From: a virus
Lineage: Duplodnaviria > Caudoviricetes
Direction: 5' to 3' (one strand)
Virus record (IMG/VR): IMGVR_UViG_3300027845_000169
Span: 1 to 64,000 of that record
Length of the DNA: 64,000 nucleotides
Shown here piece by piece: positions 3,391 through 36,612 of this stretch (position 1 is its first letter; every line of letters begins with the position of its first letter). The position numbers were made by a program, and so were the translations under genes. The notes under the pieces were generated by a model. It made no database searches. It was not told the DNA's origin and saw only the letters and a program-made list of their open reading frames with translations.

Positions 3391-4329
3391 ATGGAACATA
3401 AATGGTATGGCGACCATTCTGTTCAAACTGCTATATGGGCTATGGCTCGTAATCATGAAACTAAGTTTCAAATAGTGCATCGTGAAGGTGAAGTATTCGG
3501 CATTCGCCGCAGAAGAATGTGGGGAAGTGATGCCATAAAAACTGAATTGCAGACTTTATCTGCAAATCAAAGACCAATTGGAATCTTCATCAGCACTAAT
3601 GCTATCAATTGGAAAGTTATTCCACCGGATTTACTACCTCCTTCGTTGAGAAAGAAGGGAACAAGTGGTTACGATAACACCGCATTGAAAGGTTACAAGA
3701 AAACTTGGGACGGCTTATTGACTCCGGCAGCCTTGGAAGCCGTTGAAATGGATTTCATGGAAGTTTGGGACAATGGAAAGATTATGGTTTTTGACTTTGA
3801 CGATGAAGATAATCCGATGGCTGCCTTCAAAGCCGCACGACTGACACAAGATTATTTGGAAAAGGAACATCAAGTCAAAGGGGTGATGGTATTTAGTGGG
3901 AACAAAGGTTTTCACATTTGGGTTGCACCTACGGATGCTGAAAGTTTGGCAGGTTGTGTGCTCCAAGATTTCCGAACACAAGGGGACCCTTTGAAACAAC
4001 AAGGCCAACTTTACGCAAACTTTGTGAAACAAACAGTTTTGGCTGCCACGGGTAACTCTTTGCCAAATTATGATTTGTCGCCTAACTATCGTCAAGGTAT
4101 TGTTAGGTGTCCGTATTCCATTCACGAGAAGTCCGGACAAATTGTATGGCCACTTTCTCCAACTGAAGTTTTGGAATTACAAAAGTTTGAGGACAAAGTT
4201 CTGGACCCCGAAGGAGTTGCCCGGGTGCTCCACAGTTGGGACACTCCAAACTTTGTGGATTCTAAGAAAGGTTTGAGTTACTTTCCGCCTTGCACGAGTG
4301 TGCACTCAAGAAATATGTGGCGACTTTAG
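3391..4329 (+). CDS. priS: Archaeo-eukaryotic primase, catalytic small subunit-like
   Basis: VFDFD (motif I), FSGNKGFH (motif II), RCPYSIHEKSG. Confidence 0.8.
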   Translation: MEHKWYGDHSVQTAIWAMARNHETKFQIVHREGEVFGIRRRRMWGSDAIKTELQTLSANQRPIGIFISTNAINWKVIPPDLLPPSLRKKGTSGYDNTALKGYKKTWDGLLTPAALEAVEMDFMEVWDNGKIMVFDFDDEDNPMAAFKAARLTQDYLEKEHQVKGVMVFSGNKGFHIWVAPTDAESLAGCVLQDFRTQGDPLKQQGQLYANFVKQTVLAATGNSLPNYDLSPNYRQGIVRCPYSIHEKSGQIVWPLSPTEVLELQKFEDKVLDPEGVARVLHSWDTPNFVDSKKGLSYFPPCTSVHSRNMWRL

Positions 4330-5051
4330 TTCTTCTTCTTGCCAGTTAGAATAAGGACTGCACCTAATCCAATTATTCCAATTAACATCGGGCTAATTCC
4401 TACGGGCGGTGGTGTTGAACCTTGAATGGCAGCGTTTGGGTCACCCGAAGTAGTAGTCGTAGTAGTGCTTCCATCTTGTGGTAGCCCATAATCAATTTCC
4501 TCTTGCTCCTTTTCCGGAACATAAAGTTTGTATTCAATACAACCGGAAGGTTTAGCACAATTTCCGGAGGCTTTACCTACACAGGCTTCAATAGTATAGT
4601 TACCTGCACGGTCAAAAAGATATTCTTTGTAATTTTCATTAGGGCAATCTCCCTCACCTTCAACTCCCGAAATATCATTGTTGTGAATAACTTTAGTTTG
4701 GCCATCGGTGGACCTCCATGTTACTTTGACAGTTCCCTTATGTTTAGCAGTTTCGTCATAATGATAACCTGTCCCTGCTCCGCTGGTATCCTTTCCTCGG
4801 AATGATACAATCGCTGATGACTCAAATGGTATTTGTTCTTCGGGCGTTCCACGAATACCAATTTTCATACGGTGTCGTGTTCCACAATTATTGTAAGGGT
4901 CCTTTTGATACCATCCATCATTATTAGGGTCCGTTTCTGTCATCCATGTTACATCATCGTAATTCCACGGACATTCGGCATGAAAAGTTTGGGACTCGGA
5001 AGCATAGACATAGGAATATGGACCATTAGATACAAAGTAGTTGAAACTCAT
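4326..5051 (-). CDS. Cys-containing beta-rich protein with C-terminal membrane anchor
   Basis: Thr/Pro linker followed by TM helix and KKKN; similar to 62469-63329. Confidence 0.65.
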   Translation of the reverse strand: MSFNYFVSNGPYSYVYASESQTFHAECPWNYDDVTWMTETDPNNDGWYQKDPYNNCGTRHRMKIGIRGTPEEQIPFESSAIVSFRGKDTSGAGTGYHYDETAKHKGTVKVTWRSTDGQTKVIHNNDISGVEGEGDCPNENYKEYLFDRAGNYTIEACVGKASGNCAKPSGCIEYKLYVPEKEQEEIDYGLPQDGSTTTTTTSGDPNAAIQGSTPPPVGISPMLIGIIGLGAVLILTGKKKN

Positions 5052-6758: not shown

Positions 6759-6834
6759 AGGCATAAGTTGTCTGTCCCACTATTTAATGCCTCACACCGG
6801 AACTTTTACATAGTGAAAACTCCTAAGAGCGTTC

Positions 6835-7002
6835 ATGAGTGATAAAGCAGATGAGAAAACCTACATCCAGCGTGTGGGTATTTGTCGCCGATGCCCTCAT
6901 GCTAAATCCAAAATGTTAGGTTCCCATTGTGAGTTGTGCGGGTGTAATATCCGTTTGAAGGCTCGTGTGAAGGGCGAACAATGTCCTATCAACAAGTGGT
7001 GA
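6835..7002 (+). CDS. Small Cys-rich zinc-binding protein (DUF6171-like; not in ORF track)
   Basis: MSDKADEKTYIQRVGICRRCPHAKSKMLGSHCELCGCNIRLKARVKGEQCPINKW: CxxC...CxxCGC...CPxxKW. Confidence 0.65.
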   Translation: MSDKADEKTYIQRVGICRRCPHAKSKMLGSHCELCGCNIRLKARVKGEQCPINKW

Positions 7003-7033
7003 AATTAAATAGTCGTAAGGCTAATTGATTATC

Positions 7034-8350
7034 ATGCCTGTCCGTCAAGTAGGAAAAAATTGTTACCAATGGGGTAATCAAAAGAAGTATTGCGGACCAA
7101 ATGCTAAGAAAAAAGCCATTCTTCAAGGTATTGCTATTGAAAATACTGGATGGAAGGAAGCGGAGAATTGGGGACGGGTAAAATCTCATCAACCTGTTCG
7201 TGATGCAACCCGAGGTTGCTACCCGTGTCCCGATTGTGGAAATCCGATGAGGGAAACTAATTCCGGAAGTTTTGGTTATTATTGTGCTTGTTACAAGTGT
7301 GGGGCAAATTATATTACCAAACCTTTGAAAGCAGAAGAAGAAAGGTGTTGTAAAGAATGCAATGTTGCTACGGGCCTAACTACTATTCAAACTGGAACTT
7401 ACTGTTACGAGTGCTTACCAATAAACTTAGGTGCCGAAGACGACTACACGAAAACTTATGGTGAGCAGCAAGGAACTATTCGCCGGAAACTTAAGAATAA
7501 AATTATGAAACAAGCAATCATGGGAACTAAGGCCGGTCAATGGTCCGCTCGCAAGTCCCAAGAACTCAAACGGCAGTATGAAGCAGCCTGTGAAAAGAAA
7601 AGTTTGGCTCCCTACAAAGGCAAGAAGACAAGTGCTCAAAAAGATTTGACCTCATGGACCAAACAAGATTGGACTACTAAGAGTGGAAAACCTTCCAGTA
7701 AAACAGGTGAAAGGTATTTACCTAAGAAGGCGATTAAGTCCCTCACCGACAAAGAATACAAGAAAACCAGTTCAAAGAAAAGAAAGGATAGTAAGAAAGG
7801 CAAACAATTCAGCAAACAACCCAGCGGAATTGCTAAGAAGGTAGCACAATACCGTGCCGAAATAGAATCCAAACCTTATCGTGTAGTTATCTCTCGTTCC
7901 ACCAACGATGCTAAGAAATTAATGGCTGTCTTTTATGATGGAGAGGATAAGAAAGTTAAGACTACACATTTTGGAGCAAGAGGGTCCAGCGACTATACGA
8001 AACATGGAGATAAGGAAAGAATGGAAAGATACCTTGAGCGACATGGTGGAGGATTTGAAACAAGCACCAAAGAAAATTGGAAAGACCCCATGACTGCGGG
8101 TGCACTCTCCCGATGGATTCTTTGGAATAAACCCGACCTTGGCCGAAGTTTCAATGACTATTTGCGCCGCTTCAATCTCAAAGGTGAGTTAAAAGTTTCT
8201 AAGTCTGCTGAAACTGGAATTGAAAAGTTTGGAGCAACTACGAAAGAGGACTTTCTTTCTGTAACCCAAGGGGTTACAGAAAGAAAACTACATTGGGTTC
8301 CAATCTTTTGTGGTATGGGATTGGCCTTCTTGACTTTCCGTAACCGTTAA
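7034..8350 (+). CDS. Mosaic multidomain protein (Zn ribbons, DUF5872-like and DUF5754-like domains, C-terminal TM helix)
   Basis: GQWSARKSQ...WTKQDW...GERYLPKKA and HFGARGSSDYTKH...RYLERH...LSRWILW resemble small viral domain families; TTAAATAG at 7005, 29 nt before ATG 7034. Confidence 0.7.
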   Translation: MPVRQVGKNCYQWGNQKKYCGPNAKKKAILQGIAIENTGWKEAENWGRVKSHQPVRDATRGCYPCPDCGNPMRETNSGSFGYYCACYKCGANYITKPLKAEEERCCKECNVATGLTTIQTGTYCYECLPINLGAEDDYTKTYGEQQGTIRRKLKNKIMKQAIMGTKAGQWSARKSQELKRQYEAACEKKSLAPYKGKKTSAQKDLTSWTKQDWTTKSGKPSSKTGERYLPKKAIKSLTDKEYKKTSSKKRKDSKKGKQFSKQPSGIAKKVAQYRAEIESKPYRVVISRSTNDAKKLMAVFYDGEDKKVKTTHFGARGSSDYTKHGDKERMERYLERHGGGFETSTKENWKDPMTAGALSRWILWNKPDLGRSFNDYLRRFNLKGELKVSKSAETGIEKFGATTKEDFLSVTQGVTERKLHWVPIFCGMGLAFLTFRNR

Positions 8351-8375
8351 GTGGGTGCTTCCCTTATAGAATAAT

Positions 8376-9021: not shown

Positions 9022-9708
9022 ATGAAAGATGGTGACGAGTTTGACAGACTTCACGATGAATACCTTGCTTTCCTTGATGAAGGAGCAGGTGATTACCTAC
9101 AAGAACACGCCGAAATTATGCAAGACTCCTTGGGTTTGGATTCAGCAGATACGGTCCCAGTCGTTGGGATTAATCCATTAACTGCGGAACCTTATATTAT
9201 GACCCTCGCAATGGTTGGCTACAAAGAAATTAATGGTGAAATGTATCAATGCAGTCTTGCATGGTATCCATTTCCAAAACTTCCGGTTGAAGTAATGCGT
9301 CTTTTGCATAAGAAAGAAAATACTCTTATGGCTGATGACGGAGATGATGAAGACATCGTGGCCGAATTACTCCGAAGAAGATTGGCTATTGTAGCACTTA
9401 TTGAAGATACAGACGATGCCGATGCTGTCGGTTGGAAACAAGTTTTGAAAGAAGTTCAAACAGGCCAGCGGAATACTAATTTTGAAGATGCTATGGGTGC
9501 AGATGAAATCATGGACGACTTTGGTGAACAACTAACAGGAATGTTAGGTGATTTACTTTCCGGTAGTATGGATGATATGACTTTCGGAGATTTAGTCCGT
9601 ATGATTGCTGACGCTCAAGAGTTTGACAAGCGGGTTGAACCTGTGGTTGCTAAGGCTGATGAAGACTTCACCGAATGGGATGACACTTTCGTTTCCGATT
9701 GGGAGTGA
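9022..9708 (+). CDS. Acidic hypothetical protein
   Basis: 228-aa ORF with TTAAATAGGTG promoter at 8992. Confidence 0.65.
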   Translation: MKDGDEFDRLHDEYLAFLDEGAGDYLQEHAEIMQDSLGLDSADTVPVVGINPLTAEPYIMTLAMVGYKEINGEMYQCSLAWYPFPKLPVEVMRLLHKKENTLMADDGDDEDIVAELLRRRLAIVALIEDTDDADAVGWKQVLKEVQTGQRNTNFEDAMGADEIMDDFGEQLTGMLGDLLSGSMDDMTFGDLVRMIADAQEFDKRVEPVVAKADEDFTEWDDTFVSDWE

Positions 9709-9742
9709 AAGTATAAATAGGTGAAATAACCCTGTTTAGCAC

Positions 9743-9991
9743 ATGGCGGGAACCGATAAGAGAGGCATGGCAATTGCTATGGATGGAAGAGTGGTAAGAC
9801 ACTCCGAAGCACGATGGACTGTAATTGGCGATACAAAACCAAGAAAGCACTACACCGTATTAAACTTCAATCCAAAAATGAAATGCGATTGCCCGAATCA
9901 TCAACGCTTCAAACATGACTGTAAGCACATTAAGGCTGTGAAAGTCATGTTAGCACAAGAACAATTCGGTTTAGACTTTAGAATGGAGTGA
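9743..9991 (+). CDS. SWIM zinc-finger protein
   Basis: CDCP...CKHIKAV (CxC-xn-CxH). Confidence 0.8.
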   Translation: MAGTDKRGMAIAMDGRVVRHSEARWTVIGDTKPRKHYTVLNFNPKMKCDCPNHQRFKHDCKHIKAVKVMLAQEQFGLDFRME

Positions 9992-10802: not shown

Positions 10803-10821
10803 AAAGGAAGAAGGTGTGATT

Positions 10822-11787
10822 ATGAGTGATGAGGAAACAACCCCACAAAGACCCGATGTGGCACAATGCGAAGAATGCGGTAGCAAAGATGTTAAAGATG
10901 ATGAAAATGGATTTCCATGCTGCCAACAATGTGGATTAATGCAATCCAGTCTTTCTATTGACTACGGTAAAGACAATCGTGTGTTCTCCGATGGCTCCGG
11001 CATGGAGAGTGAGCGTTGGGGAATGCCAAAGACAGATTTGATTCACGATGGTGGACTATCCACCGACATTTCATGGCAAAACAAAGATTACTCCGGTAAT
11101 CCACTTGCTAAAGGAATGGCTTCTAAGATTCACAGGCTACGCCGACAACACCAAAGAACCCGTATTAAGGATGCAACCGAGCGAAACCTTGTAGTAGCCT
11201 TAGCGGAATTACAAAGATTGGCTGGCCAAATGGGACTGCCACAAACTATCAAAGAGTCTGCGGCTCGTCATTACAAAAATGCAGTAAAGATGAAGTTAGT
11301 GCGTGGGCGTTCAATTGAAGGAGTCGTAGCGGCTTCGCTTTATCTTTCATGCAGAATGGCTGATGCTCCAAGAACATTGGATGAGGTCGGACATTATTCA
11401 AGAACAGGTCGTAAGGAAATTGGCCGCACCTACCGTGCTATCGTCAAAGCCCTCAAGATTAAAGTTCCACCGGCTGAACCACATGGCTATGTTCCTCGGT
11501 TCTGCACTTCATTGAATCTTCCAACACCCGTTCAAGTCCGAGCATTGCGACTTGTGCATGAGAATGAGAAATCAAATGGGATGGCAGGTCGTGGCCCTAC
11601 TGGGATTGCGGCGGCGGCAGTTTATCTTGCAGCCATGTTAAAAGGACACAACCGCACTCAAAGAGAAGTGGCCGTAGCCGCAGGTGTAACCGAGGTAACT
11701 ATCCGCAACCGTTTCAAAGAAATGTGTGCAGACTTTGGATTCAACCCATCCAACCCTCAAGAAGACGACTTGAAGAAAGATGAGTAG
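10822..11787 (+). CDS. tfb: Archaeal transcription initiation factor IIB (TFB)
   Basis: N-terminal Zn ribbon CEEC/CQQC, HDGGLSTDI, ERNL, RGRSIEGVVAASLY, PRTLDEV, GRGPTGIAAAAVY, TQREVA..AGVTEVTIRNR. Confidence 0.95.
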   Translation: MSDEETTPQRPDVAQCEECGSKDVKDDENGFPCCQQCGLMQSSLSIDYGKDNRVFSDGSGMESERWGMPKTDLIHDGGLSTDISWQNKDYSGNPLAKGMASKIHRLRRQHQRTRIKDATERNLVVALAELQRLAGQMGLPQTIKESAARHYKNAVKMKLVRGRSIEGVVAASLYLSCRMADAPRTLDEVGHYSRTGRKEIGRTYRAIVKALKIKVPPAEPHGYVPRFCTSLNLPTPVQVRALRLVHENEKSNGMAGRGPTGIAAAAVYLAAMLKGHNRTQREVAVAAGVTEVTIRNRFKEMCADFGFNPSNPQEDDLKKDE

Positions 11788-11818: not shown

Positions 11819-12424
11819 ATGGATATTGGTTATTTTGTCGTTTTACTCGGCATAGCCTTGATGCTTCCTCTTTTGTATTACCTATCAAATATCATTGCTC
11901 AATGGGTTAATGATGGCGAAGTCGTTGTGGAACCTACAATAGAGATTCCGGACTTACAACCAATTATTGATAGTCTGCACGAAAGTGTGGCTAACTTACA
12001 TACGGACCTTGAATCTTGGCGTTACATAGCCAATGAGCGTGAAGAACGGGCCAATAGTTTGGAAGCAGATAAGGTAGGCTTAGAAATGACAATAGAAACT
12101 TTGAGGGGAGAAGTTTTGCATCAAAAGGGAAGGGCTGCTTCGGCACATACTACCCGAGGCCAACTTCTTGAGAAATGGACTCCCTTCGTGTCAGCGGAAG
12201 GTATAGAAGAACATTGGCGTGTGGAAGATTGGCAATTCCTCGGAGCACCTATTGACTATGTAGTATTTGATTGGCGACAAGACAAAGTGGAAAACTTAAC
12301 GAGTGGGAAGATTGTCTTACTTGATGTGAAGAGTGGGAAAAGTCAATTGACTTCCAAACAAAGAAGAATCCGTGATTTAATCAAAGCAGGGCGTGTTGAA
12401 TGGCGAGAGATTCGCTTAGATTAG
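11819..12424 (+). CDS. Holliday junction resolvase-like PD-(D/E)XK endonuclease with N-terminal TM helix and coiled coil
   Basis: FLGAPIDYVVF...DVKSGKSQLTSKQRRIRDLIKAGRVEW, typical of the Endonuc_Holl family. Confidence 0.8.
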   Translation: MDIGYFVVLLGIALMLPLLYYLSNIIAQWVNDGEVVVEPTIEIPDLQPIIDSLHESVANLHTDLESWRYIANEREERANSLEADKVGLEMTIETLRGEVLHQKGRAASAHTTRGQLLEKWTPFVSAEGIEEHWRVEDWQFLGAPIDYVVFDWRQDKVENLTSGKIVLLDVKSGKSQLTSKQRRIRDLIKAGRVEWREIRLD

Positions 12425-12482: not shown

Positions 12483-12920
12483 ATGACGGGCGTAATATCA
12501 GTCAATATCAATGCGAATGATGGCTTTCAAGCCAATAGATGGACGAAGAATGGTGAGCGTGGACTTGCCGACAGGGTGTATGTTGATACTCCCGAAGGAA
12601 CGAAAGTAGGCTACTACGATTTGGTGAAAGGCCGATGGATGATGGATAAATCCAATACATCCGTAGGTATGGGAATCTTGTCGGATTCAACAGGGGCTAA
12701 GATTAGTCTTGAGATTGTTGGAAAGGATGATGTTCACATCGGAATGAAGACAGTTTTGATGCCGCATGAAGGCCCTATCTTCGGACAGGGAACTAACTTG
12801 GCCAAAGATTGGCTCGTAGCAAATGGTGAAGCAAACGATATGTCTATTGCCGAGTTCCTTGATGCTTGTATGGCTGGCGGAGAAGCATGGCTAACAATGC
12901 ACCGCCAAAAGTATAATTGA
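12483..12920 (+). CDS. Hypothetical protein
   Basis: 145 aa; TTAAATAGGTG 30 nt upstream. Confidence 0.65.
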   Translation: MTGVISVNINANDGFQANRWTKNGERGLADRVYVDTPEGTKVGYYDLVKGRWMMDKSNTSVGMGILSDSTGAKISLEIVGKDDVHIGMKTVLMPHEGPIFGQGTNLAKDWLVANGEANDMSIAEFLDACMAGGEAWLTMHRQKYN

Positions 12921-12930
12921 GCGTGATTAC

Positions 12931-13281
12931 ATGAGTGCTAATAAGATTGTGGAAGTAGGTTTGTGCGGTCCCGGCCGACACCCTATTACTAATCAAGATG
13001 GCGAATCCATTGATGCCTTCATTTTTGAAGGTCAAGTGGCCAATCCATTAGACTTTCTATCACACATTAAGCGTTCCACAGAATATCTTCAAGCAGTTAA
13101 AACTGATGCTACCGATGCTTTAGTCCTCTATGTGACTGGGCTAACTCCGGTGCTAACTTCCTTCCTTCAAGTTTGGGAATGGACTCAAGAAGTGGTGCGT
13201 GAACAGGGCAACAACCCTCCGCAATTGATTTTGATGCACTATGATAGGGATTCGGAATCGTATGTCCCTCAACACTTTTAG
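12931..13281 (+). CDS. Hypothetical protein (Rossmann/CARF-like motif)
   Basis: LYVTGLTPVL...LMHYDRDSESY. Confidence 0.55.
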   Translation: MSANKIVEVGLCGPGRHPITNQDGESIDAFIFEGQVANPLDFLSHIKRSTEYLQAVKTDATDALVLYVTGLTPVLTSFLQVWEWTQEVVREQGNNPPQLILMHYDRDSESYVPQHF

Positions 13282-13286
13282 GTGAT

Positions 13287-13454
13287 ATGATGCAGTATCG
13301 GATTGATATTGGAAGTGGAAATCTCCTTGTGTTTGAGGATGATGGCGATAAGCACTTGAAAGTTTTAGTCGTTGATTCTAAAGACCAAAAGACTGGTATG
13401 TATCTTGGCCGATGCTTGCGTTCCGATGTGAAGCGTTTAGGCCGAGGAATGTAA
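13287..13454 (+). CDS. Small hypothetical protein (55 aa, not in ORF track)
   Basis: AGGTGA ribosome-binding-like site before ATG; fills the gap between flanking genes. Confidence 0.5.
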   Translation: MMQYRIDIGSGNLLVFEDDGDKHLKVLVVDSKDQKTGMYLGRCLRSDVKRLGRGM

Positions 13455-13497
13455 TTTATACACAATGCTTAAATACCCCACATACTGTGGAGTAGTC

Positions 13498-13767
13498 ATG
13501 AGCCGCCGAGGAATTGTATTTAGCACCCGACTTGAGAACGACATTGACTTGTATATGCAAGAACAGCGTGAGCCGATAGACCCAAGAACGGTCATCAGTA
13601 ATCTTTACACCCGCCGAGTGTGGGGCAAACTTGCTCGCACACCAAAGCGACTCGCTTACTATTTCAAGAGGTCGGGACACTATGTTCAAATCGGTGCTTC
13701 ACGCCCGTTCAATTACATTTGGTCGGATAACTACGATAGTAGGACTCATGGCCCTCGTCATAATTAG
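13498..13767 (+). CDS. Small basic hypothetical protein
   Basis: TTAAATAC at 13469 is 29 nt before ATG 13498. Confidence 0.55.
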   Translation: MSRRGIVFSTRLENDIDLYMQEQREPIDPRTVISNLYTRRVWGKLARTPKRLAYYFKRSGHYVQIGASRPFNYIWSDNYDSRTHGPRHN

Positions 13768-14222
13768 AATATATCATCTTCGTGAGCAATTGCTTCGGCT
13801 TCTTCTTGGGGTTTATCTCCAATGAATCCAAAGGTCATGCTGGGCTTTAGATTTTCTGCTTTACAATAATCCTCAATAAGTGATGAGGTTCCGGTTACGG
13901 ATTCTTCCATCTTCTTGAGGCTACCACGCCAAACTAATTCATATTGAGTATAGACTCCCTCTTTGAATTGTAAAGAACGGCGTTGTATATGCAAATCACG
14001 ACCTGCGGCAAATAACTTCATTTGCTCAAAGAGTGGGTGTGATTCGGGAGCGACATGGCGTTCTCCGAATGTGAATCTCATCATATATCCTACTGGTTGG
14101 ACTTCTTTTGGTTGTTGTGAGTAATACTCAATAGCCTCTCCTAAATCCATAACTTGTGGTTCGTCTGCACAATTGCATTCGTTCTCTTCGCAACACTCGG
14201 GGTCATCATTTGTAATACTCAT
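13764..14222 (-). CDS. Hypothetical protein, paralog of 14320-14703
   Basis: VGYMMRFTF...ELVWRG versus GGYLMRYTF...DFVWEG. Confidence 0.65.
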   Translation of the reverse strand: MSITNDDPECCEENECNCADEPQVMDLGEAIEYYSQQPKEVQPVGYMMRFTFGERHVAPESHPLFEQMKLFAAGRDLHIQRRSLQFKEGVYTQYELVWRGSLKKMEESVTGTSSLIEDYCKAENLKPSMTFGFIGDKPQEEAEAIAHEDDIF

Positions 14223-18434: not shown

Positions 18435-18516
18435 AGTTCCTCATTCACACGCCGACTATTTCAAAGGTTCTTCTCCACCCCATTGGGTTAAATAGGTGGT
18501 GTCGGTATGCAATACT

Positions 18517-26654: not shown

Positions 26655-28346
26655 ATGGTCGCAGACATTCCGAAGGATATAACTACCTTCGCCCAAGATT
26701 GTGTTAGCGGCAAGCACACCAACAGACCCTATACTGACCGAAGCGTTTCTATTGAAGGTGCATACTATTCCCAAGTTACGGGTGAGTATGTTACTGGAAC
26801 AGGCATTTGTCTAAAGTTAGAAAGTGGACCACTTACAAAGAAAGAAGCCCGCAAGGTGGGACTAAAGTTTGCCATTTCCGATGGTAACTTCCAAGTCAAT
26901 TGTATGGCTCATAATGGAGCCACAGTTACATTACCGGCGAGTAAATCTTCGGAAGAGATGACACACATTCTTAAGACCGTTACTGATTCAATTCGTAATG
27001 GAAACAAAGTCGCATTTAGTGGTGCATTCATCACTCATAATCGTGACCTTGTATTCGTCATTGATAGTATAGCACCGTTGAAAAATATGCAACATAGTCA
27101 AATGACTGATGTGCAACTTGACGAGTTCCTTGCACTTTGTAAGGCTAACAAAACTAACCCACTTGAGTTAATGATGAGGGATGATACCCTTTGGTCGGAG
27201 TTATTCGCCCGTGATTATCTCAAGAAGGCTATCCTTCTTTATTGTCTATCGCCCCTGCGTAAGCAAGACATGATGCACATTGGTATTGTATCATCAGTCG
27301 GCGAAGGGAAAGACCACTTGATTGAAAGAGTCATTGAACCTTTAGTTCCAGTAGGTGTAGCATCCAGCGGAAAACTATGCACAATCCCCGGATTGTTTGG
27401 AGCCATGAGTGGTGAAGACATCAACTCCATTGAGTTAGGTTTGATACCTAAACACAACAATGAAAGATTAGCAGTTTCCGAGTTTCAAACTTGGGATGAT
27501 GAAGTATTCGGAGAATTGATGAATACGATGGCTAATGGATATTTCACCATGCAGAAGGGACAGGTTGATACCCGCCGTGATGCCAAAGCGAATATGTTAT
27601 TCCTTGGAAATCCCCCGCACTATTGGGATGAAGAAGCCGGACACGAAGGTAAAGATATGCTTCAAGCGTTCGGACAATACACAACCCAAATCATGAGTCG
27701 CTTAACACTCATCTTTACTCAAATGTCTTTGGCCGGAGATGATGCCAAGGATAAGATTAGAGAGAACATCATGAGGACGATGGATGGCCAGTTCTCTAAT
27801 GGAGGTTCGGAAGAAGCGGCCAAACTTTGGAGAGCATTCTTCCGTGAGTATTTGAGAAAAGTTAGCGACAGTAACCCTACAATCGGAAAGTTAGCCGGAA
27901 TCATTAACAGCACTTATGACGAAATTGAGGAAAGGCCACAATTCAAATCTGCCTTCTTACTTCGTAGTAACAATGATTACAGAAAATACCAAGAGTTCAC
28001 GAACCTAATCAAAGGTTTCGCCAAACTTTCCGGTTCTAAGAAAATAACTGTAAAACATTTGATGCTGGCAAGACAAATCTTTGAAGAAAGTCTAATCACA
28101 CTTATTGATGAGTTCCCAACTACTGCTATGAACATGGGAGTGGACTATGAATTACTCACCTGCCTTGAGTTAGCAAAAACTTCGGGACGAATGTTTGATA
28201 ATGCCAGTCAATTGAAACGGGCTGGCGACATGACACAACAACAATTAGACACGCTGGTTCATGTAGGAGCCATTGCCGAAATGTCCGGTGGAGAGTATCT
28301 CATAAATGAGGATTTTGATATGAATGGTTTGGAGGAATCACCATGA
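26655..28346 (+). CDS. mcm: Divergent MCM-like AAA+ helicase
   Basis: HIGIVSSVGEGKD (Walker A-like), TIPGLFG, IELGLIP, LAVSEF (Walker B-like), LFLGNP, IMSRL. Confidence 0.65.
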   Translation: MVADIPKDITTFAQDCVSGKHTNRPYTDRSVSIEGAYYSQVTGEYVTGTGICLKLESGPLTKKEARKVGLKFAISDGNFQVNCMAHNGATVTLPASKSSEEMTHILKTVTDSIRNGNKVAFSGAFITHNRDLVFVIDSIAPLKNMQHSQMTDVQLDEFLALCKANKTNPLELMMRDDTLWSELFARDYLKKAILLYCLSPLRKQDMMHIGIVSSVGEGKDHLIERVIEPLVPVGVASSGKLCTIPGLFGAMSGEDINSIELGLIPKHNNERLAVSEFQTWDDEVFGELMNTMANGYFTMQKGQVDTRRDAKANMLFLGNPPHYWDEEAGHEGKDMLQAFGQYTTQIMSRLTLIFTQMSLAGDDAKDKIRENIMRTMDGQFSNGGSEEAAKLWRAFFREYLRKVSDSNPTIGKLAGIINSTYDEIEERPQFKSAFLLRSNNDYRKYQEFTNLIKGFAKLSGSKKITVKHLMLARQIFEESLITLIDEFPTTAMNMGVDYELLTCLELAKTSGRMFDNASQLKRAGDMTQQQLDTLVHVGAIAEMSGGEYLINEDFDMNGLEESP

Positions 28347-29349: not shown

Positions 29350-29760
29350 ATGTTGTTCACAAATTACCGACACGCAGCCGGTTGCATTGTTCGTGATGCC
29401 GATACTCAAATGATATTATTACTTCGCCGTTCAATTAATGAAACTTCGTTTCACGGAATGTGGGAACTTCCCGGCGGTAAATTAGAAGAAGATGAATTGC
29501 CCGAAGAAACTGCTCTCAATGAAACTACCGAAGAAACCGGACTCGGTATCTATCAAAAATTAGTTAAAACTGACCTTAAATTAGATTACCATATAGACCA
29601 CGACATGAAAAAGATTTACTATGGATTCCTCGTTGAAACCAAAAACCCAACTGTGGAGTTATCCGATGAACACGATGGCTTCATGTGGATTACTGTTGAA
29701 GGTGCTCTAAGTATTGAACCACTTAGTCATCATGCACATTTCTTGCTTTCGCAATTGTGA
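29350..29760 (+). CDS. NUDIX hydrolase
   Basis: WELPGGKLEEDELPEETALNETTEETGL Nudix box; LSDEH. Confidence 0.9.
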   Translation: MLFTNYRHAAGCIVRDADTQMILLLRRSINETSFHGMWELPGGKLEEDELPEETALNETTEETGLGIYQKLVKTDLKLDYHIDHDMKKIYYGFLVETKNPTVELSDEHDGFMWITVEGALSIEPLSHHAHFLLSQL

Positions 29761-30959: not shown

Positions 30960-31472
30960 ATGTCCGACCTTCCAAGTGATAGTCCTAACAAAATGAAGCC
31001 CGCAGCCTTGCTTACTGGTGCATTAGCCGGTATGTCTTTAGTGCTAACCCAAACTGATATGTCCGAGTATTCCCTTTACACCGCCGTGGGTGCTGGATTT
31101 ACTTTCATTACTTATCTTTACCTACGCAACAAAGCAAAGATTATTGCCGTAGTTGATGAGGGAATTGAAGATTTGACAGGTATTGACCTCTCCGCAGAAG
31201 ATGTGGAAAAGTTAGTGGACCAAGCAGCAGACTCCGTAGGAGATATTGCTTCCGATGCTCTCGCCGCCGCCGAAGAAGGTAAAGATGTTGCCGATGCTAT
31301 CAAAGACGCAGTTGAAGATGAGATTCACGAAGAAATCGGAATTGAAATTGAACTTGACGAACTTACAGTAAAAGGTTTGAAGAACGAACTCAAACAATTA
31401 GGACTTTCCACTAAAGGTAGGAAGGCTGAATTAGTCGCTCGTCTAACCGAGGCAATGTCAAAAGGTGAATGA
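30960..31472 (+). CDS. Membrane-anchored SAP-domain protein
   Basis: Two N-terminal TM helices; C-terminal LTVKGLKNELKQLGLSTKGRKAELVARL SAP motif. Confidence 0.8.
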   Translation: MSDLPSDSPNKMKPAALLTGALAGMSLVLTQTDMSEYSLYTAVGAGFTFITYLYLRNKAKIIAVVDEGIEDLTGIDLSAEDVEKLVDQAADSVGDIASDALAAAEEGKDVADAIKDAVEDEIHEEIGIEIELDELTVKGLKNELKQLGLSTKGRKAELVARLTEAMSKGE

Positions 31473-31474
31473 AC

Positions 31475-31633: not shown

Positions 31634-31856
31634 AGATAATCGCAAAGCGGTTTGGAAAGCAATTCAAACTACTGGTGATTTGTTAGTCGGCAGACTGCCC
31701 GAATCTTCAAGACATCCTAATGGCCGTAATCCATACGCTCATGTCGCCTTGTGCGTCAAGAATAAGTTTGGTTGTAGTTACAAAGATATTCCCGATGAGG
31801 ATATTATGGATGTTATAGAATACCTTGAATGGCTAACTACGAAATCAGTTTCTTGA
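31626..31856 (+). CDS. Small hypothetical protein
   Basis: 76 aa; HPNGRNPYAHV...SYKDIPDE. Confidence 0.6.
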   Translation: MNEDNRKAVWKAIQTTGDLLVGRLPESSRHPNGRNPYAHVALCVKNKFGCSYKDIPDEDIMDVIEYLEWLTTKSVS

Positions 31857-33002
31857 TTTCTTTTCTTGGTCTGCTTTGATAACTGACTTCAAAAGTGCTT
31901 CCCACTCATCCGCTTTATTCTCAAGAGTTTGTTCACCAGCCCATGCTTTTCCGGCTTCCCTGTAAGGGAGGGTTAATTCGGGATTATCCATGTAAGTTTC
32001 CAAGGTGCGGGCAACTACACTAATGTAATCGTTGTGTTCCATATCAACGCCCTCGGCTCCACGCTTTGGAATGAGGACTCCTCTATCACCGATGGTGTGA
32101 GGCATAGAACCAAGTTCCGATGCAATAATAAAACAACCTGCTCTTTGGGCTTCCAAAGCACAAATGCAATAAGTTTCCACGAAGTCGGTAGGATATAGAA
32201 GGATGTCGCACTCCGCCCAAGCCTTCTCAATTTCCTCATCACTAACATATCCAAATAATTCAATGTCGTGTGGGGACTCTTCCACAAGTTGTCTTAGGGA
32301 TGGAGTTTTCCAATCAAAGAATCGGAAAGTGCGGCCCGGATAAGGAGCATTGTCATCATCTTCATACTCGGCTTGATGGCCATAGATGTGAAATGAAATC
32401 TTACCGTGCTTCTCGGGGTCTATTTTGTTGATGACTTCTAAAGCAGAACAAAGACCTCTATTCCAACCGGAAATCCAAACCATACGATTCTTGACTTTCT
32501 CAATTCCGCTGGTGTCAAGTTTAGGGGCATCTAAGCCATGACCTATTTCGTTGAAGTGGTGGTGTGGTATATTGTAATGTTGCATCATTCCATAAGTGTG
32601 GGATGGAGTGAGTGTGACGGTCTTAGAACAAAGTCCACCTTCCACCAAGTTGGCGTAAGTCTGCCTACCATCCTCATAAAAGACAGTATTCTCATAGCCT
32701 GTGAGTGGTCTTACATCATGTTGCCAAAATACAGTAGGGACTTGCTTACATTCTTCATAAAGCCAATAGTTAAGGTATCGCTGAACAATAACTACATCAA
32801 AATCAAGAGCGTTCATAGTTGGCAAAGGTCTTGACCTCCAACAGAAGATTTCAACATGGTGACCTCGCTTAACGAGTTCAACGGCCATTTGTGCTAATGA
32901 CCTCTCACTTCCCCATCCACCGCCGGGAAGTTCCCAATCTTCAGTAACTACTGTGTGTGCATCAAAGACAGGGGAATAACCAGTCCAATAAGCGATACGC
33001 AT
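31845..33002 (-). CDS. Glycosyltransferase, GT-B fold (GT4-like)
   Basis: GGGWGSE, DILLYPT..ETYCICALEAQRAG (Ex7E). Confidence 0.85.
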   Translation of the reverse strand: MRIAYWTGYSPVFDAHTVVTEDWELPGGGWGSERSLAQMAVELVKRGHHVEIFCWRSRPLPTMNALDFDVVIVQRYLNYWLYEECKQVPTVFWQHDVRPLTGYENTVFYEDGRQTYANLVEGGLCSKTVTLTPSHTYGMMQHYNIPHHHFNEIGHGLDAPKLDTSGIEKVKNRMVWISGWNRGLCSALEVINKIDPEKHGKISFHIYGHQAEYEDDDNAPYPGRTFRFFDWKTPSLRQLVEESPHDIELFGYVSDEEIEKAWAECDILLYPTDFVETYCICALEAQRAGCFIIASELGSMPHTIGDRGVLIPKRGAEGVDMEHNDYISVVARTLETYMDNPELTLPYREAGKAWAGEQTLENKADEWEALLKSVIKADQEKKSRN

Positions 33003-33069
33003 AATAGCCCATACGGTAATTTCCTACTTAATGGTTCTTTGAAATAGGTGTTTGCACCTATGCCTAATC

Positions 33070-36000
33070 ATGAGCCGTGCTGTTAAGCAACCTCAAGTTG
33101 TGGACTATGAACCCTACTATGAGATGCTTCAAAAAGATACAGACGAGGTTTATGATATTGCTAACCGGTGCAGAAGTCAAGGCTATGACCCCGAATTGAA
33201 AGTTGAGATACCTCAAGCCAATGACTTGGCAGACCGCACACAAAAACTTTTGAACTTCTTACACCCAAGAAACACGGCAGCACAAATCCGTGAATTGACG
33301 GAACTGCACGAAGGAAATAGAGAGTTAGTGGCTTTGGACCTCGCCAAGATTGTTTGTGCCGAAACTTTCCTATATGCTAAGACTTCTAAATGTCAAGTTT
33401 GTGATGGTAAAGGAACTATCAAAAAAGGATATAGAACGAGGGACTGCCACGCTTGTGAAGGTAGTGGATTGAAATTAGATTACACTAAAGATTTGATAAC
33501 TAATACTTGGGAAGAAACTTTGGAGGCAATGGAAAACTTTGCAGACATCAAGAAAACAACCAAGACAAGAATGGCACTTTGTATCTATCATGGAATCTGT
33601 GCAGGGTTAGCAGTCTTGACCGAAGGAATCCTTGTGGCTCCACTTGAAGGTGTAGTTTCATGTAGGATTATAGACAATGCCAGCGGAAGCCGAAGTCTTG
33701 CGATTAACTTTGCTGGACCAATTCGTTCTGCTGGTGGAACAGGTCAAGCGTTATCAGTTTTGATTGGAGATATTCTTCGCCGACAATTCGGATTGGAACC
33801 TCCGGAAATGACTTTTGAAGAAATTGAAAGATACAAAGAAGAAGTTATGAAATATGGTCGTGGTCTGCAATACCGTCCATCTAATCCTCAAATTGAAGTT
33901 CTATGTAATAACTGTCCGGTCTATCTTGATGGAGAGGGTGTGGGTGAAGAAGTAAGCGGACAAAGAGATTTGCCGAGAGTCCCCACGAATAAATGTCGTG
34001 AAGGTGCCCTATTGGTATTATGTGAAGGCATGGTATTGAAGGCTCCAAAGATTCTCAAATATACAGACGCACTTGGGTTTTCCGAGTGGGAATGGTTGAG
34101 AGAGTTCGCACCTAACAAAGAAGAAGAAGATGATGGGCCTAAGACCTTACAACCTATCAATAAGTATCTCGCAGACATGGTAGCGGGGCGACCAATCTTT
34201 TCACAACCAATGCAAGTAGGCGGGTTCCGACTTAGGTATGGTCGTTCCCGATTAGCAGGGTTGGCAACTACGGCAGTCCACCCATCCACTATGAAAGTTG
34301 TGGCAGGGTTTTTCATTACAGGAACTCAACTGAAATATGAACGGCCCGGAAAAGGAACGGTGGTAACTCCTTGCGATAGTATAGAAGGCCCCTATGTTCA
34401 ATTCACAGATGGGTCGGGTAAAAGGATTAGAGAACCTTCGGAATTACCGGACGGGTTACCAACTGACCCTTATTGGCCGATAGAAAAGATTTGGGATATT
34501 GGAGAATTACTCGTTCCAGTCGGTGAGTTTTTGGAAAATAATCATACTCTTGCCCCCTCACCTTATGTAAGAGAATGGCACGAACAAGTTATAGAACAGC
34601 ATACTGCGTCCTATCCTACCTCATTTATAGAAAGTTTGGAACAATCCGAGCAGTTGGGAATACCGATTGCCCCGGAATACATTGCTTACTATAATGAAGT
34701 GAGCATAGAAGATATAGAACGCTTGGCTGCGGACACAAAAGTTGATGTTCATACTCAATCTATAACTGTTGCTAAAGATTCAAGACCCACGATTTATGCG
34801 TTAGGAATTGATATAGATAAGGATGGGAAAATAGAAGGCGATAAGGGCGTGTTTTGGGGCTGGGTAGTATCACAGACCTCAAATAGTAAGGCAACGCCAC
34901 AGGACGGCTTAGAATGGGTAAATATGAGGCTTCCAGAAGGAGTTGAGGCTCTTTCAGCCGTTACACTCCGAATTGGAGCAAGAATGGGTAAGCCGGAAGG
35001 TTCTAAGCCAAGAGAAATGAAACCTGCTATTCATGGACTTTTCCCAGTTGGTTTTAAGGTGGGGACAAAAAGATTAATGCGAGATGCCGCCGCCAAGAAA
35101 GTTAAGATTGAAGTTGGCCTAAGACTGGATGAAGAAACTGGCGAACATACTTGGCAAAGGTTCCTCAAAAATCCCGATGGAAGTTTCCGTAAAACTAAGT
35201 TTGTGGAATTACAACAACAAAATGTTGGGTTCAATGATTTGTGGGAACAATCCCTCAAAGATGCAGACTTATTGGGGACTCCCGAAGTTAAGGGAGTCAA
35301 GGGAATGACGAGTGTGGAAAAGACTCCGGAATCAATGTTGAAAGGGGTTTTGCGTTACAAAAATGGAGTATCAGTATTCCGTGATGGGACACTACGATGG
35401 GACATGGTTGATATTACCATGACTCATTTCCGTCCGGCAGAAATCGGCATGACAATAAAGCAAGCACATAAGTTAGGATATACTTACGATGTTTTCGGGG
35501 ACCCCTTGACAGATGAAAACCAAACTTGTGAATTGAGGGTGCAAGATGTAGTATTGCCAACTAACTGTGCGGACAATCTTGTAAAGGCTACTAAGTTTTT
35601 AGACGATTTGTTAATTAGACAATATGGAGAAAAGGCTTACTATAATGTGGATAGTCCACAAGATTTAATAGGACACTTGGGTATGGGTATCGCACCTCAC
35701 ACAAGTGGGGCTATCGTTTGTCGTATCATCGGATTCAGTAATATAAAGGGACACTACGGACATCCATTTTTCCATGCGGCGAAACGCCGTAATTGTGATG
35801 GAGATATTGACGCATTTATGCTATTGCTTGATGGAGTTCTAAACTTTAGTAGGGCTTTCCTCGCAGGGCATAGGGGCGGTCAAATGGATGCACCATTGAT
35901 TCTCACTATGCGTATCAATCCAAGTGAAATTGACAAAGAGGCTCTCAATGTTGATACTTCTATGCAATATCCAATTACATTTTATGAAGGGACACAATCA

Positions 36001-36612
36001 TACCCCGATGCTAAAGATGCGCTCAAGTTAGGTGTTGAAACTGTTGAAACGAGATTGGGTAGTCCAGCGGAACTTAGCGGTTTTGGTTTCACACACGACA
36101 CAGAAGATTGTGGGGCCGGGCCTATTATCAATCCATATACAGAATTAGAATCCATGCGTCAAAAGACAATGGCTCAATTCGCTCTTGGAGATTTACTTCA
36201 TGCCGTTGATAATAAACAACAGGCTTCCAAACTTATTGACCGACATTTGATTAGAGATATGAGAGGTAACCTTCGGGCATTCGGACAACAAAAAGTTAGG
36301 TGTCCTAAATGTGGAGCGAAATATAGACGACCACCTATCACGGGTAAATGCAGAACTTTGTTATCGGAAAAATCGTCCGAAGAGTCGGTGACCGGAGAAC
36401 ACGAAGTTGTTTATTGTGATGGCCAAATTATTCTTACGGTGTCAAAAGGTTCTGTTAAGAAGTATGACTCATTGATGAATGACCTTGTGGATAAATATGG
36501 ATGCGATAATTACATTCAACAATTGTATTACCATGTGAGTGATTGGGTATCTCAAACATTTGACGATAACGACATGACCGAGCAAACTAAGTTAGATTTA
36601 GATTTCCTTTGA
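33070..36612 (+). CDS. polC: DNA polymerase D large subunit (DP2)
   Basis: LAVLTEGILVAPLEG, FAGPIRSAGGT, GGFRLRYGRSR, IGARMGKPE, VKGVKG, APHTS, HPFFHAAKRRNCDGDID, RGGQMDAPL, GNLRAF, CPKCGAKYRRPP; TGAAATAGGTG 30 nt before ATG 33070. Confidence 0.95.
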   Translation: MSRAVKQPQVVDYEPYYEMLQKDTDEVYDIANRCRSQGYDPELKVEIPQANDLADRTQKLLNFLHPRNTAAQIRELTELHEGNRELVALDLAKIVCAETFLYAKTSKCQVCDGKGTIKKGYRTRDCHACEGSGLKLDYTKDLITNTWEETLEAMENFADIKKTTKTRMALCIYHGICAGLAVLTEGILVAPLEGVVSCRIIDNASGSRSLAINFAGPIRSAGGTGQALSVLIGDILRRQFGLEPPEMTFEEIERYKEEVMKYGRGLQYRPSNPQIEVLCNNCPVYLDGEGVGEEVSGQRDLPRVPTNKCREGALLVLCEGMVLKAPKILKYTDALGFSEWEWLREFAPNKEEEDDGPKTLQPINKYLADMVAGRPIFSQPMQVGGFRLRYGRSRLAGLATTAVHPSTMKVVAGFFITGTQLKYERPGKGTVVTPCDSIEGPYVQFTDGSGKRIREPSELPDGLPTDPYWPIEKIWDIGELLVPVGEFLENNHTLAPSPYVREWHEQVIEQHTASYPTSFIESLEQSEQLGIPIAPEYIAYYNEVSIEDIERLAADTKVDVHTQSITVAKDSRPTIYALGIDIDKDGKIEGDKGVFWGWVVSQTSNSKATPQDGLEWVNMRLPEGVEALSAVTLRIGARMGKPEGSKPREMKPAIHGLFPVGFKVGTKRLMRDAAAKKVKIEVGLRLDEETGEHTWQRFLKNPDGSFRKTKFVELQQQNVGFNDLWEQSLKDADLLGTPEVKGVKGMTSVEKTPESMLKGVLRYKNGVSVFRDGTLRWDMVDITMTHFRPAEIGMTIKQAHKLGYTYDVFGDPLTDENQTCELRVQDVVLPTNCADNLVKATKFLDDLLIRQYGEKAYYNVDSPQDLIGHLGMGIAPHTSGAIVCRIIGFSNIKGHYGHPFFHAAKRRNCDGDIDAFMLLLDGVLNFSRAFLAGHRGGQMDAPLILTMRINPSEIDKEALNVDTSMQYPITFYEGTQSYPDAKDALKLGVETVETRLGSPAELSGFGFTHDTEDCGAGPIINPYTELESMRQKTMAQFALGDLLHAVDNKQQASKLIDRHLIRDMRGNLRAFGQQKVRCPKCGAKYRRPPITGKCRTLLSEKSSEESVTGEHEVVYCDGQIILTVSKGSVKKYDSLMNDLVDKYGCDNYIQQLYYHVSDWVSQTFDDNDMTEQTKLDLDFL

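Follow-up and report, generated by a model that had tools for sequence, protein, structure and literature searches.

A virus contig encoding DNA polymerase D and candidate jelly-roll capsid proteins, probably from a tailless virus of marine Thermoplasmatota-like archaea

The stretch of DNA analysed here, referred to as the window, comprises bases 1-64000 of one IMG/VR virus contig of 150,353 bp (IMGVR_UViG_3300027845_000169, in the following G000) and covers 43% of its length from the left end. A mostly rightward group of genes with archaeal-type replication and transcription functions, among them those encoding the large subunit DP2 of DNA polymerase D (PolD) and a transcription factor B (TFB), is followed by a long block of leftward genes, in which a family of predicted jelly-roll proteins was found. 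From the letters of the window alone, the original prediction had proposed that these two groups together form a possibly undescribed lineage of large, membrane-containing archaeal viruses. The complete contig and its relatives argue for a virus of this kind, equipped with a PolD replisome of its own. The coordinates of the main features are compiled in Table 1.

G000 carries the label "linear" in IMG/VR and a CheckV completeness of 53%. A simple greedy call yielded 184 open reading frames (ORFs), which cover 93% of the contig at 43.8% G+C. No tRNA was detected on the whole 150,353-bp contig and no Rfam family reached its gathering score in the window. With the jelly-roll family profile three related IMG/VR records were retrieved, and all three encode a DP2 with 56-57% identity; a contig profile scan with DP2 alone as query gave no relative. 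One of the relatives (G001) comprises 166,176 bp with an inverted terminal repeat of 3,464 bp at 99.4% identity, a second one (G002) 160,342 bp with a 99-bp inverted repeat at the termini. G000 is collinear with both: 99 of its 184 ORFs were matched in G001, 106 in G002 and 93 in both genomes. The first genes of G000 correspond to approximately 12-16 kb of G001 and the last ones to approximately 162 kb; G000 therefore lacks mainly the termini. Judged by these relatives, the genome would be a near-complete linear dsDNA with a full length of about 160-166 kb and inverted terminal repeats.

The genes of G000 point mostly rightward from 3.4 to 36.6 kb and then almost wholly leftward up to the contig end. 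Within the 184-ORF set the plus arm is mixed, with 10 ORFs on the minus strand between 4326 and 33002, and the minus arm begins at 36622, from where every gene up to the end of the window is encoded on the minus strand. The layout of one strand per arm is common to G000, G001, and G002. The cumulative GC skew reaches its maximum at 36 kb and falls steadily to the contig end. The convergence of the arms and the skew peak at 36613-36899 fit inward replication from both termini or, likewise, a strand bias caused by transcription. Near the terminal repeat of G001, at its left end (L095:8548-12701), a GmrSD-like/HNH nuclease and a UvdE UV endonuclease are encoded in a region that is not part of G000.

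The last gene of the plus arm encodes a full-length DP2, whose N-terminal, central and catalytic domains were detected in Pfam with E-values of 1.5e-80, 6.2e-83, and 2.6e-120; it reached 990 bits against TIGR00354 (cut-off 702). The small subunit DP1, with its OB and phosphoesterase domains, scored 454 bits against NF003118 (cut-off 445). As DP1 and the clamp PCNA are encoded beyond the window and DP2 within it, the genome encodes both PolD subunits together with the clamp. In this composition it resembles cellular archaeal PolD. A FEN-like nuclease, PolX, a ribonucleotide reductase and Fpg/Nei are also encoded on the minus arm beyond the window. The genome thus encodes an archaeal-type replisome comprising the PolD subunits, PCNA, an MCM-like ATPase, the FEN-like nuclease and an ATP-dependent ligase, and PolD activity is predicted; nucleotide-supply and repair enzymes are present as well.

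In contrast to cellular PolD, the polymerase is found here on a virus record and its sequence is clearly set apart. Its identity to the cellular DP2s that were compared does not exceed 47%, and for those among them that derive from the pattern scan it does not exceed 41%. In the catalytic stretch all 19 virus-linked sequences read NCDGDID, a pattern which occurs in none of the 79 other rows; 53 of these 79 carry NCDGDED, and the remaining 26 gave no regex match, one of them being mis-oriented. The canonical NCDGDED of PolD is accordingly not kept in the viral DP2, with the aspartates retained. On this alignment we regard NCDGDID as a marker of the clade. Of 8,000 metagenome candidates scored for DP2, 5,747 matched at E <= 1e-10, a number which includes cellular DP2s.

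The eight functions which the original prediction had placed on the plus arm were retained to different degrees. Six of them (DP2, TFB, the resolvase-like nuclease, the XPD/DinG helicase, the MCM-like helicase and the dNMP kinase) lie where they had been described and pass a curated cut-off or have a strong E-value. For the kinase it was the generic model that was passed, and the score for DNMK stayed below the cut-off (25.4 vs. 27.1 bits, E 1.3e-5). The XPD/DinG-like helicase was matched by the YoaA model of NCBIfam (E 1.3e-28) and also by its DinG model. The MCM-like protein is 49-51% identical in G001 and G002; it had no match in NCBIfam, and in the PDB search weak ChlI matches only. For the proposed PriS-like primase and the Cas4-like nuclease the ORFs are present, whereas the family matches are below threshold for both. 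The primase candidate reached 26.4 bits with LigD_Prim-Pol (cut-off 27.4, E 6.2e-6), 23.7 bits with DNA_primase_S (cut-off 26.8, E 6.8e-5) and an E-value of 9.3e-5 with the NCBIfam PriS model; it had no match in the PDB and has homologs in G001 and G002 with 35-36% identity. The nuclease candidate (48-50% identity in G001 and G002) did not match the Cas_Cas4 model. Its sequence contains a D..ExK stretch and ends with a CX2CX5C region, which we take to be motifs of Cas4-like enzymes.

The TFB encoded next to the Hjc-like nuclease reached 353 bits against PRK00423, under the cut-off of 384, and its best PDB chains were 1d3u_B (E 2.9e-50) and 1ais_B (E 3e-50). A TATA-like sequence TTAA[AG]TA occurs in 109 copies on both strands of the contig, 52 of which precede the start of one of the 184 ORFs by exactly 29-30 nt; these copies are accompanied by a position rich in A at -34. 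Neither the window nor the whole contig showed an evident signal of the Shine-Dalgarno type. In archaeal promoters such a spacing corresponds to a TATA box with the transcription start at the start codon, and the motif fits an archaeal TATA box with leaderless transcription. Domain searches covered 70 ORFs of the contig with Pfam and 10 with PHROGs, and all statements on scanned ORFs refer to this set. No gene for an RNA polymerase was found among them, so that transcription probably relies on the polymerase of the host: the TFB of the virus would recruit it to the TTAA[AG]TA promoters, from which leaderless mRNAs would be produced.

Phylogenetic analyses of DP1 and DP2, all of them quick or FastTree searches, and the matches of TFB were used to trace these genes. 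DP1 falls inside the Thermoplasmatota (starred support of 99) as sister to the genomes G045, G013, and G025 (starred support of 98). The marker tree suggested in the original prediction was computed for DP2: the 19 virus-linked sequences form one separate clade (starred support of 100) in a FastTree of 91 rows, and both trees computed with an IQ-TREE mixture model, with subsets of 37 and 30 rows, retain this clade. The 91-row tree excludes seven rows that were partial or carried an intein. With the DP2s of G045, G013, and G025 added, the viral clade groups with them (IQ-TREE mixture model, quick search, SH-aLRT of 96, starred). The best cellular matches of TFB are also found in the Thermoplasmatota, in G025 (330 bits, 52%) and G013 (328 bits, 51%); elsewhere the scores did not exceed 289 bits for the Asgard phylum to which G008 belongs and 208 bits for the Nitrososphaerota. 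The agreement of DP1, DP2, and TFB thus indicates one Thermoplasmatota lineage, which is the probable host or else the source from which the genes for replication and transcription were acquired. Two DP2s that are closer than the cellular ones are located on contigs in metagenome-assembled genomes (MAGs) labelled Rickettsiales and Woesearchaeota; the relatives found in public MAGs (L013, L014; P0397, P0398) are probably mis-binned viral contigs.

On the minus arm, a family of five paralogs was recognized by BLASTP (44955-45815, 45865-46644, 58280-58918, 58918-59574, and contig 103318-103845). The two genes in tandem at 58280-59574 represent the most conserved pair of full-length proteins in comparison with G001 and G002 (68-78% identity). 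The family comprises 1,820 clusters at 90% identity, Tara sequences among them, and 335 at 50%; none of its members contains a Pfam domain. A model of the protein 58918-59574, predicted from a diverse alignment of 66 rows, reached a predicted local distance difference test (pLDDT) of 90.7 and a predicted template modeling score of 0.83 and consists of an eight-stranded sandwich followed by two helices. Its top Foldseek match is the capsid protein VP4 of the archaeal virus SPV1 (PDB 6oj0, E 1.1e-3, probability 1.0). The same protein was obtained with VIA, which is independent of Foldseek, as the sole one of 48,161 chains with Z >= 8 (Z 8.5, root-mean-square deviation 3.1, 134 residues; the next chain had 6.6), and on rank 5 of a BFVD search (E 1e-3). 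In the ESM Atlas only the family's own unnamed clusters were found, and the nearest named entries were capsid domains similar to PM2 P2 and PRD1 P3, at a chance level of 0.76-0.77.

For the two tandem proteins a complex with a score of 0.76 was predicted, in comparison with 0.00 for the best of three controls; in the calibration this value was attained by 58 of 80 solved complexes and by two of 110 mismatched pairs. The contacts agreed to at least 93% between the runs, and the pLDDT of the partner was at least 89. The two proteins are accordingly predicted to bind each other. We regard the family as a non-HK97 capsid candidate, with a capsid role suggested by the modeled fold. Six relatives (P0248, P0259, P0260, P0273, P0289, and P0296) are longer, with 415-454 residues, and contain an insert of approximately 200 residues rich in G, T and S after the first strand, which may be a surface tower domain. 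A reading of these 400-450-residue relatives as fused double jelly rolls was rejected in favor of this insert.

The original prediction had asked whether the complete contig encodes a terminase or a packaging ATPase of the FtsK, HerA, or A32 type. A HerA/FtsK-type ATPase of 407 residues was found on the minus arm, and neither Terminase_6N nor A32 was matched. The enzyme, a putative packaging ATPase, gave weak matches to DUF87 and TraG and matched nine HerA-type PDB sequences (best E 1.1e-5) as well as five HerA or CedD models of NCBIfam. In pairwise BLASTP it aligned with the putative ATPase ORF13 of the virus HCIV-1 with 25% identity over 191 residues (E 2e-8), from Walker A to the Q-R-P stretch. 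The similarity to P9 of PRD1 extends over 48 residues only (E 0.002), and that to B164 of STIV has an E-value of 0.27. One transmembrane (TM) helix is predicted at residue 382 of 407 and would represent a C-terminal anchor.

A crude hydropathy scan predicted at least one TM helix in 39 of the 184 ORFs, and in 14 of the 26 which start at 44-64 kb. Twelve ORFs, including that of the packaging ATPase, appear tail-anchored. Small predicted membrane proteins directly adjoin the tandem jelly-roll genes, and a further cluster was found at 47-50 kb. The minus arm also encodes a homolog of the ArsA/Get3 family, with 52-54% identity to its counterparts in G001 and G002. Get3 is known for inserting tail-anchored proteins; the viral homolog would act likewise, and it may be a dedicated helper of membrane insertion. 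On these grounds we infer an internal membrane of the virion.

Taken together, G000 is probably the near-complete genome of a large, tailless virus, presumably membrane-containing, which infects marine Thermoplasmatota-like archaea and replicates with its own PolD replisome. In such a virus replication would proceed inward from both ends, co-directional with the genes, and the Hjc-like nuclease would resolve the replication intermediates. The virion would be a tailless shell of single-jelly-roll proteins with the products of 58280-58918 and 58918-59574 as heterodimer and further paralogs at the vertices or as decoration. This shell would enclose an internal membrane that bears many small and tail-anchored proteins, the latter inserted by the ArsA/Get3 homolog. 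The membrane-anchored HerA/FtsK-type ATPase would pump the DNA into the shell, and glycosyltransferases and the collagen-like protein would decorate its surface.

Several observations weigh against this reading. The virion and the host are predictions from the genes. As to the capsid, the first model of the paralog 58280-58918 had a pLDDT of only 62.5, with cupins at the top of its match list. The VIA Z of 8.5 is barely over the best Z of 7-8 that is typical for models without a true match, and the jelly-roll fold is common: the other VIA matches are cupins, cement and fiber proteins of phages, and CUB domains. The family profile gave no match to PDB sequences, and hhalign probabilities of 0.3% and 0.2% with VP4 and VP7 of HCIV-1, where the sensitivity is limited because each template was a single sequence. 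Since the tandem proteins are paralogous, their predicted complex may only reflect an interface of the homodimer type, and any homodimer would probably yield a similar score for two of its paralogs. The ATPase is located 17 kb from the tandem pair and also resembles DNA translocases, e.g., CedD (E 4.5e-6). As to the host, the viral DP2 clade is placed beside the Poseidoniia when the three genomes G045, G013, and G025 are left out (unstarred support of 89 and 92); with lengths of 0.68-0.88 the branches of the viral sequences and of their cellular sisters are long alike, and long-branch attraction may be involved. The MAG labels of close relatives conflict (Thorarchaeota, Rickettsiales, Woesearchaeota), and with near-identical DP2s under discordant labels binning gives no consistent host. 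Collagen, TSP1, SAP, DUF5754, and DUF5872 look eukaryote- or giant-virus-like. The CheckV estimate also counts on this side; yet it looks too low, since G000 lacks mainly the termini.

The best surviving alternative, which we nevertheless consider improbable, is a linear extrachromosomal element of non-viral nature, such as a linear plasmid or a mini-Borg-like element, with a HerA/CedD-like translocase for the transfer of DNA and jelly-roll proteins that serve another purpose. The Borgs and mini-Borgs of Methanoperedens are built alike: according to their description (bioRxiv 10.1101/2024.11.05.622173), they are linear with terminal inverted repeats and carry runs of consecutive single jelly rolls similar to HCIV-1, glycosylation clusters and PCNA. 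Some mini-Borgs reportedly encode packaging ATPases, and the authors do not decide on a viral nature of Borgs. A division into two single-strand arms is found here too, and the weak CedD and TraG P-loop matches of the ATPase would agree with a translocase. The same source describes Borgs of up to 1.1 Mb in soil and wetland methane oxidizers, with PolB in all of them, which distinguishes them from G000, where no PolB was detected among the ORFs scanned. Moreover, IMG/VR lists G000-G003 as virus records, the ATPase is nearest to a virion packaging ATPase, and genes for conjugation or plasmid partition were not found among the ORFs scanned. The jelly-roll pair, being the most conserved one, very widespread and structurally closest to a capsid protein, also argues for a virus.

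Somewhat less likely still is an archaeal virus with head and tail (Caudoviricetes-like), in which HK97 capsid, portal, and terminase would have diverged beyond detection and the jelly-roll proteins would serve as decoration, cement, or fiber. The VIA matches include jelly rolls of tailed viruses (KHP40 cement, Z 5.6; HFTV1 turret, Z 5.4; tail fibers, Z 5.1-5.2), and many large ORFs are without annotation; with fold prediction covering two proteins, very divergent forms of HK97, portal or terminase could have escaped. The ORFs concerned are poorly conserved in G001 and G002, whereas conservation would be expected of a portal or capsid. Furthermore, the absence of recognizable HK97, portal, terminase, and tail genes noted in the original prediction was borne out by all scans of the contig. 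Pfam and PHROGs revealed no HK97, portal, or tail family among the scanned ORFs, and a six-frame search of the whole contig at E <= 10 gave no match to Terminase_6N, Phage_capsid, or Phage_portal; other terminase models lay outside that search. At the left end of G001, 10 scanned ORFs included no head-tail genes either, and no ribosomal or other cellular core genes were found there or among the scanned ORFs of the contig, so that nothing was detected of what the original prediction had named as evidence against itself. The only "terminase large subunit" label on the contig is the match of the ATPase to its best PHROGs family, phrog_2666 (E 1e-15), and the same label falls on B164 of the tailless virus STIV; this ATPase, HerA/FtsK-like and aligned with that of HCIV-1, is the sole enzyme of the packaging type. 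A head-tailed virus would agree with the general predominance of Caudoviricetes, which constitute 92.93% of the archaeal viruses in the database of PMC13465236.

With respect to its proposed host and ecology the virus would have a counterpart among head-tailed viruses, the magroviruses. These reportedly possess an HK97 capsid, portal, terminase, and PolB; in G000, by contrast, no HK97, portal, or terminase was matched and the polymerase is PolD. What would be shared with these viruses of Marine Group II (PMC5434244) is the occurrence as abundant oceanic viruses of planktonic Thermoplasmatota with archaeal-type replication genes of their own.

The domains of eukaryotic appearance (collagen repeats, TSP1, SAP, PP2C, DUF5754, and DUF5872, of which the last two presumably occur in large eukaryotic viruses) and a small word share of 0.17 in one oligo-dT RNA run would agree with a giant-virus-like virus of a marine eukaryote that acquired archaeal replication and transcription genes, but we hold this to be very unlikely, as the double-jelly-roll capsid, A32 ATPase, and PolB typical of Nucleocytoviricota were not recovered (Capsid_NCLDV, PF04451, and Pox_A32, PF04665, gave no match in the six-frame search at E <= 10), the ORFs scanned include neither an RNA polymerase nor a capping enzyme, TFB scores highest against the archaeal-type TFB core and Thermoplasmatota genomes, the fixed promoter spacing of 29-30 nt fits archaeal leaderless transcription, and the polymerase is PolD, which PMC10721889 describes as exclusive to Archaea.

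Among known systems, the virus works most like the tailless, membrane-containing Halopanivirales and SPV1. With the Halopanivirales (kingdom Helvetiavirae; Sphaerolipoviridae; HCIV-1, KT809302) it shares linear dsDNA and, as predicted here, a tailless design with a packaging ATPase of the HerA/FtsK type. The two small capsid genes VP7 and VP4, which are arranged in tandem in HCIV-1, have a likeness in the candidate genes 58918-59574 and 58280-58918. The jelly-roll fold is similar as well (VIA Z 5.4 for a HHIV-2 chain and 5.3 for VP17 of P23-77). It differs from the Halopanivirales in capsid sequence, where no similarity was detected, in the gene block and in genome size. HCIV-1 comprises 31,314 bp compared with approximately 160 kb here, and its ATPase gene (9191-9913) is located approximately 2.5 kb from VP7/VP4 (12712-13967) instead of 17 kb. 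The C-terminal membrane anchor of the ATPase, the PolD replisome and TFB are further differences. VP4 of SPV1 (Portogloboviridae) is the top structural match of the model, although with only 11-15% identity and borderline scores. SPV1 itself infects archaea, lacks a tail and contains an internal membrane; it presumably has a small circular genome and is not known to encode a packaging ATPase.

The proposal that the lineage is undescribed agrees with our searches. By tblastn, the ATPase, the jelly-roll protein and DP2 had no match in 50,697 GenBank records of phages and archaeal viruses; for TFB seven of these records were matched, with 25-29% identity. No description of the lineage was found in the literature searched, and the accessible full texts, including those of PMC7544198, PMC12669031, PMC12153180, PMC11706807, and PMC13465236, with supplementary files lying outside the search, mention no virus that encodes PolD. 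Here, PolD occurs with DP1 and PCNA on virus records, in a clade of its own and with thousands of metagenome sequences, a count which includes cellular DP2s. If the proposed virion is correct, these viruses, with genomes about fivefold that of HCIV-1 (31 kb), would greatly surpass all other tailless viruses of archaea in size, which raises the question of how a jelly-roll shell scales to such a genome. Whether two-gene jelly-roll capsids are precursors of double-jelly-roll capsids and whether viruses shuttle replicative polymerases among archaea are further questions that follow.

A more far-reaching interpretation, which appears doubtful to us at present, is that of a lineage of high rank and global distribution, whose large viruses would be the archaeal counterpart of the giant viruses. 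It would comprise a virion scaled to approximately 160 kb that is built of single jelly rolls, lined by a membrane and packaged by HerA, together with convergent giant-virus-like traits, i.e., collagen fibers, many glycosyltransferases and an own insertion factor for membrane proteins. The NCDGDID-marked branch of PolD would be ancient and private to these viruses, carried since the early history of the Thermoplasmatota. If this were true, PolD would not be a purely cellular enzyme, and the predicted tandem jelly-roll heterodimer would be a living model for the origin of double-jelly-roll capsids.

Fifteen sequencing runs contained at least half of the sequence words sampled from 55-62 kb, including marine water and sediment metagenomes and one metatranscriptome. 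The lineage thus occurs in many marine water and sediment data sets and could play a part in how abundant archaea of the sea are turned over. One run (X6, from 2025), which carries an organism label rather than "metagenome", contained 98% of the words; this could be a link to a host. In three further metatranscriptomes from three studies, contigs were mostly found on 57.7-60.8 kb, over the tandem jelly-roll genes, and in a fourth RNA run across all 30 bins. As the runs were chosen by 55-62 kb, contigs cannot rank expression and RNA libraries may contain DNA, this gives a weak hint of expression only. In the RNA run X15, the bin 62677-63343 reached a word depth of 109 compared with approximately 3-5 elsewhere; it overlaps the low-complexity "New_glue"-like ORF 62469-63338, so that cross-matching is likely.

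Table 1. Features of the window and of the remaining contig G000, ordered by position. Positions marked "contig" lie beyond the window.
Feature	Position	Strand	Evidence
AEP (PriS/PrimPol-like) primase candidate	3391-4329	+	Matches below threshold
DUF5754 and DUF5872 protein	7025-8350	+	Pfam DUF5754 E 1.3e-18; DUF5872 E 8.7e-6
Transcription factor B (TFB/TFIIB)	10816-11787	+	Pfam TFIIB repeat E 6.6e-44
Hjc-like Holliday-junction resolvase family nuclease	11819-12424	+	Pfam Endonuc_Holl E 9.2e-17
Cas4/PD-(D/E)XK-like nuclease candidate (weak)	16017-17084	+	PDDEXK_1 13.2 bits, E 0.0036, below cut-off
PP2C/SpoIIE-type phosphatase	17667-18434	-	Pfam SpoIIE E 1.3e-5; PP2C E 1e-4
XPD/DinG/YoaA-like SF2 helicase	18496-20727	+	Helicase_C_2 E 1e-14; ResIII E 7e-8
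Nucleotide (dNMP-type) kinase	20761-21330	+	AAA_18 42.2 bits vs. 29.4 (E 1.3e-10)
MCM-like AAA+ helicase candidate	26655-28346	+	Pfam MCM P-loop 29.1 bits vs. cut-off 23.3
NUDIX hydrolase	29350-29760	+	Pfam NUDIX E 4.4e-20
SAP-domain DNA-binding protein	30960-31472	+	Pfam SAP E 6.4e-12
GT1-family glycosyltransferase	31845-33002	-	Glyco_trans_1_4 E 2.8e-11
PolD large catalytic subunit DP2	33052-36612	+	Three Pfam DP2 domains; last gene of the plus arm
Junction of convergent gene arms	36613-36899		ORF map; peak of cumulative GC skew
GT2 glycosyltransferase	36900-37985	-	Glycos_transf_2 E 5.3e-13
Collagen-like protein, 1968 aa, putative surface fiber	38027-43933	-	Pfam Collagen E 2.3e-223
Jelly-roll paralog, 286 aa	44955-45815	-	BLASTP to 58280-58918 E 2e-33; alignment
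Jelly-roll paralog, 259 aa	45865-46644	-	BLASTP to 58918-59574 E 9e-31
Small-protein cluster, six with predicted TM helices	47188-49962	-	Hydropathy scan
Classical AAA+ ATPase (CDC48/FtsH/PAN-like)	55700-57121	-	Pfam AAA E 8.3e-19; FtsH_fam E 1.1e-33; CDC48 E 2.3e-32
GT2 glycosyltransferase	57126-58148	-	Glycos_transf_2 E 4.1e-21
Jelly-roll protein, candidate major capsid protein B, 212 aa	58280-58918	-	68-72% identical in G001/G002
Jelly-roll protein, candidate major capsid protein A, 218 aa	58918-59574	-	76-78% identical in G001/G002
Three small membrane proteins adjoining the tandem jelly-roll genes	59768-60550	-	Hydropathy scan
ATP-dependent ligase	contig 69331-70584	minus arm	Pfam scan
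HerA/FtsK-type ATPase, putative packaging enzyme, 407 aa	contig 76890-78113	minus arm	P-loop; HerA matches
ArsA/Get3-family ATPase	contig 98250-99443 (L002:14250-15443)	minus arm	ArsA_ATPase E 2e-59
PCNA	contig 119187-119957	minus arm	Family match
PolD small subunit DP1	contig 137873-139213	minus arm	DNA_pol_E_B, Metallophos, and OB domains

The minus arm had been described in the original prediction as consisting of structural genes. All genes are indeed on the minus strand up to the window end; beyond it, the same arm carries DP1, PCNA, the ligase, the FEN-like nuclease, PolX, and the ribonucleotide reductase and is thus not purely structural. A fusion protein with UDP-glucose dehydrogenase, proteins with TSP1 and TSP3 repeats, further glycosyltransferases, and a class II nucleotidyltransferase with HD domain are also encoded there.

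Two genes of the window stand out by composition or poor conservation. The collagen-repeat gene (38027-43933) has a GC content of 0.56-0.59, compared with approximately 0.43 around it and 0.44 in the genome, and its product is barely conserved, with a match of 84 residues in G001 and none in G002. The ORF 21357-23480 encodes a protein of 707 residues with long low-complexity runs of GS, GE, and GQ, for which no homolog was found in G001 or G002. Close to the packaging ATPase, a protein of 1235 residues with an AAA_lid_2 domain (contig 82673-86380) is encoded two genes from a weak VWA-domain protein (78154-79176), and the two may represent a pair of the MoxR/VWA type.

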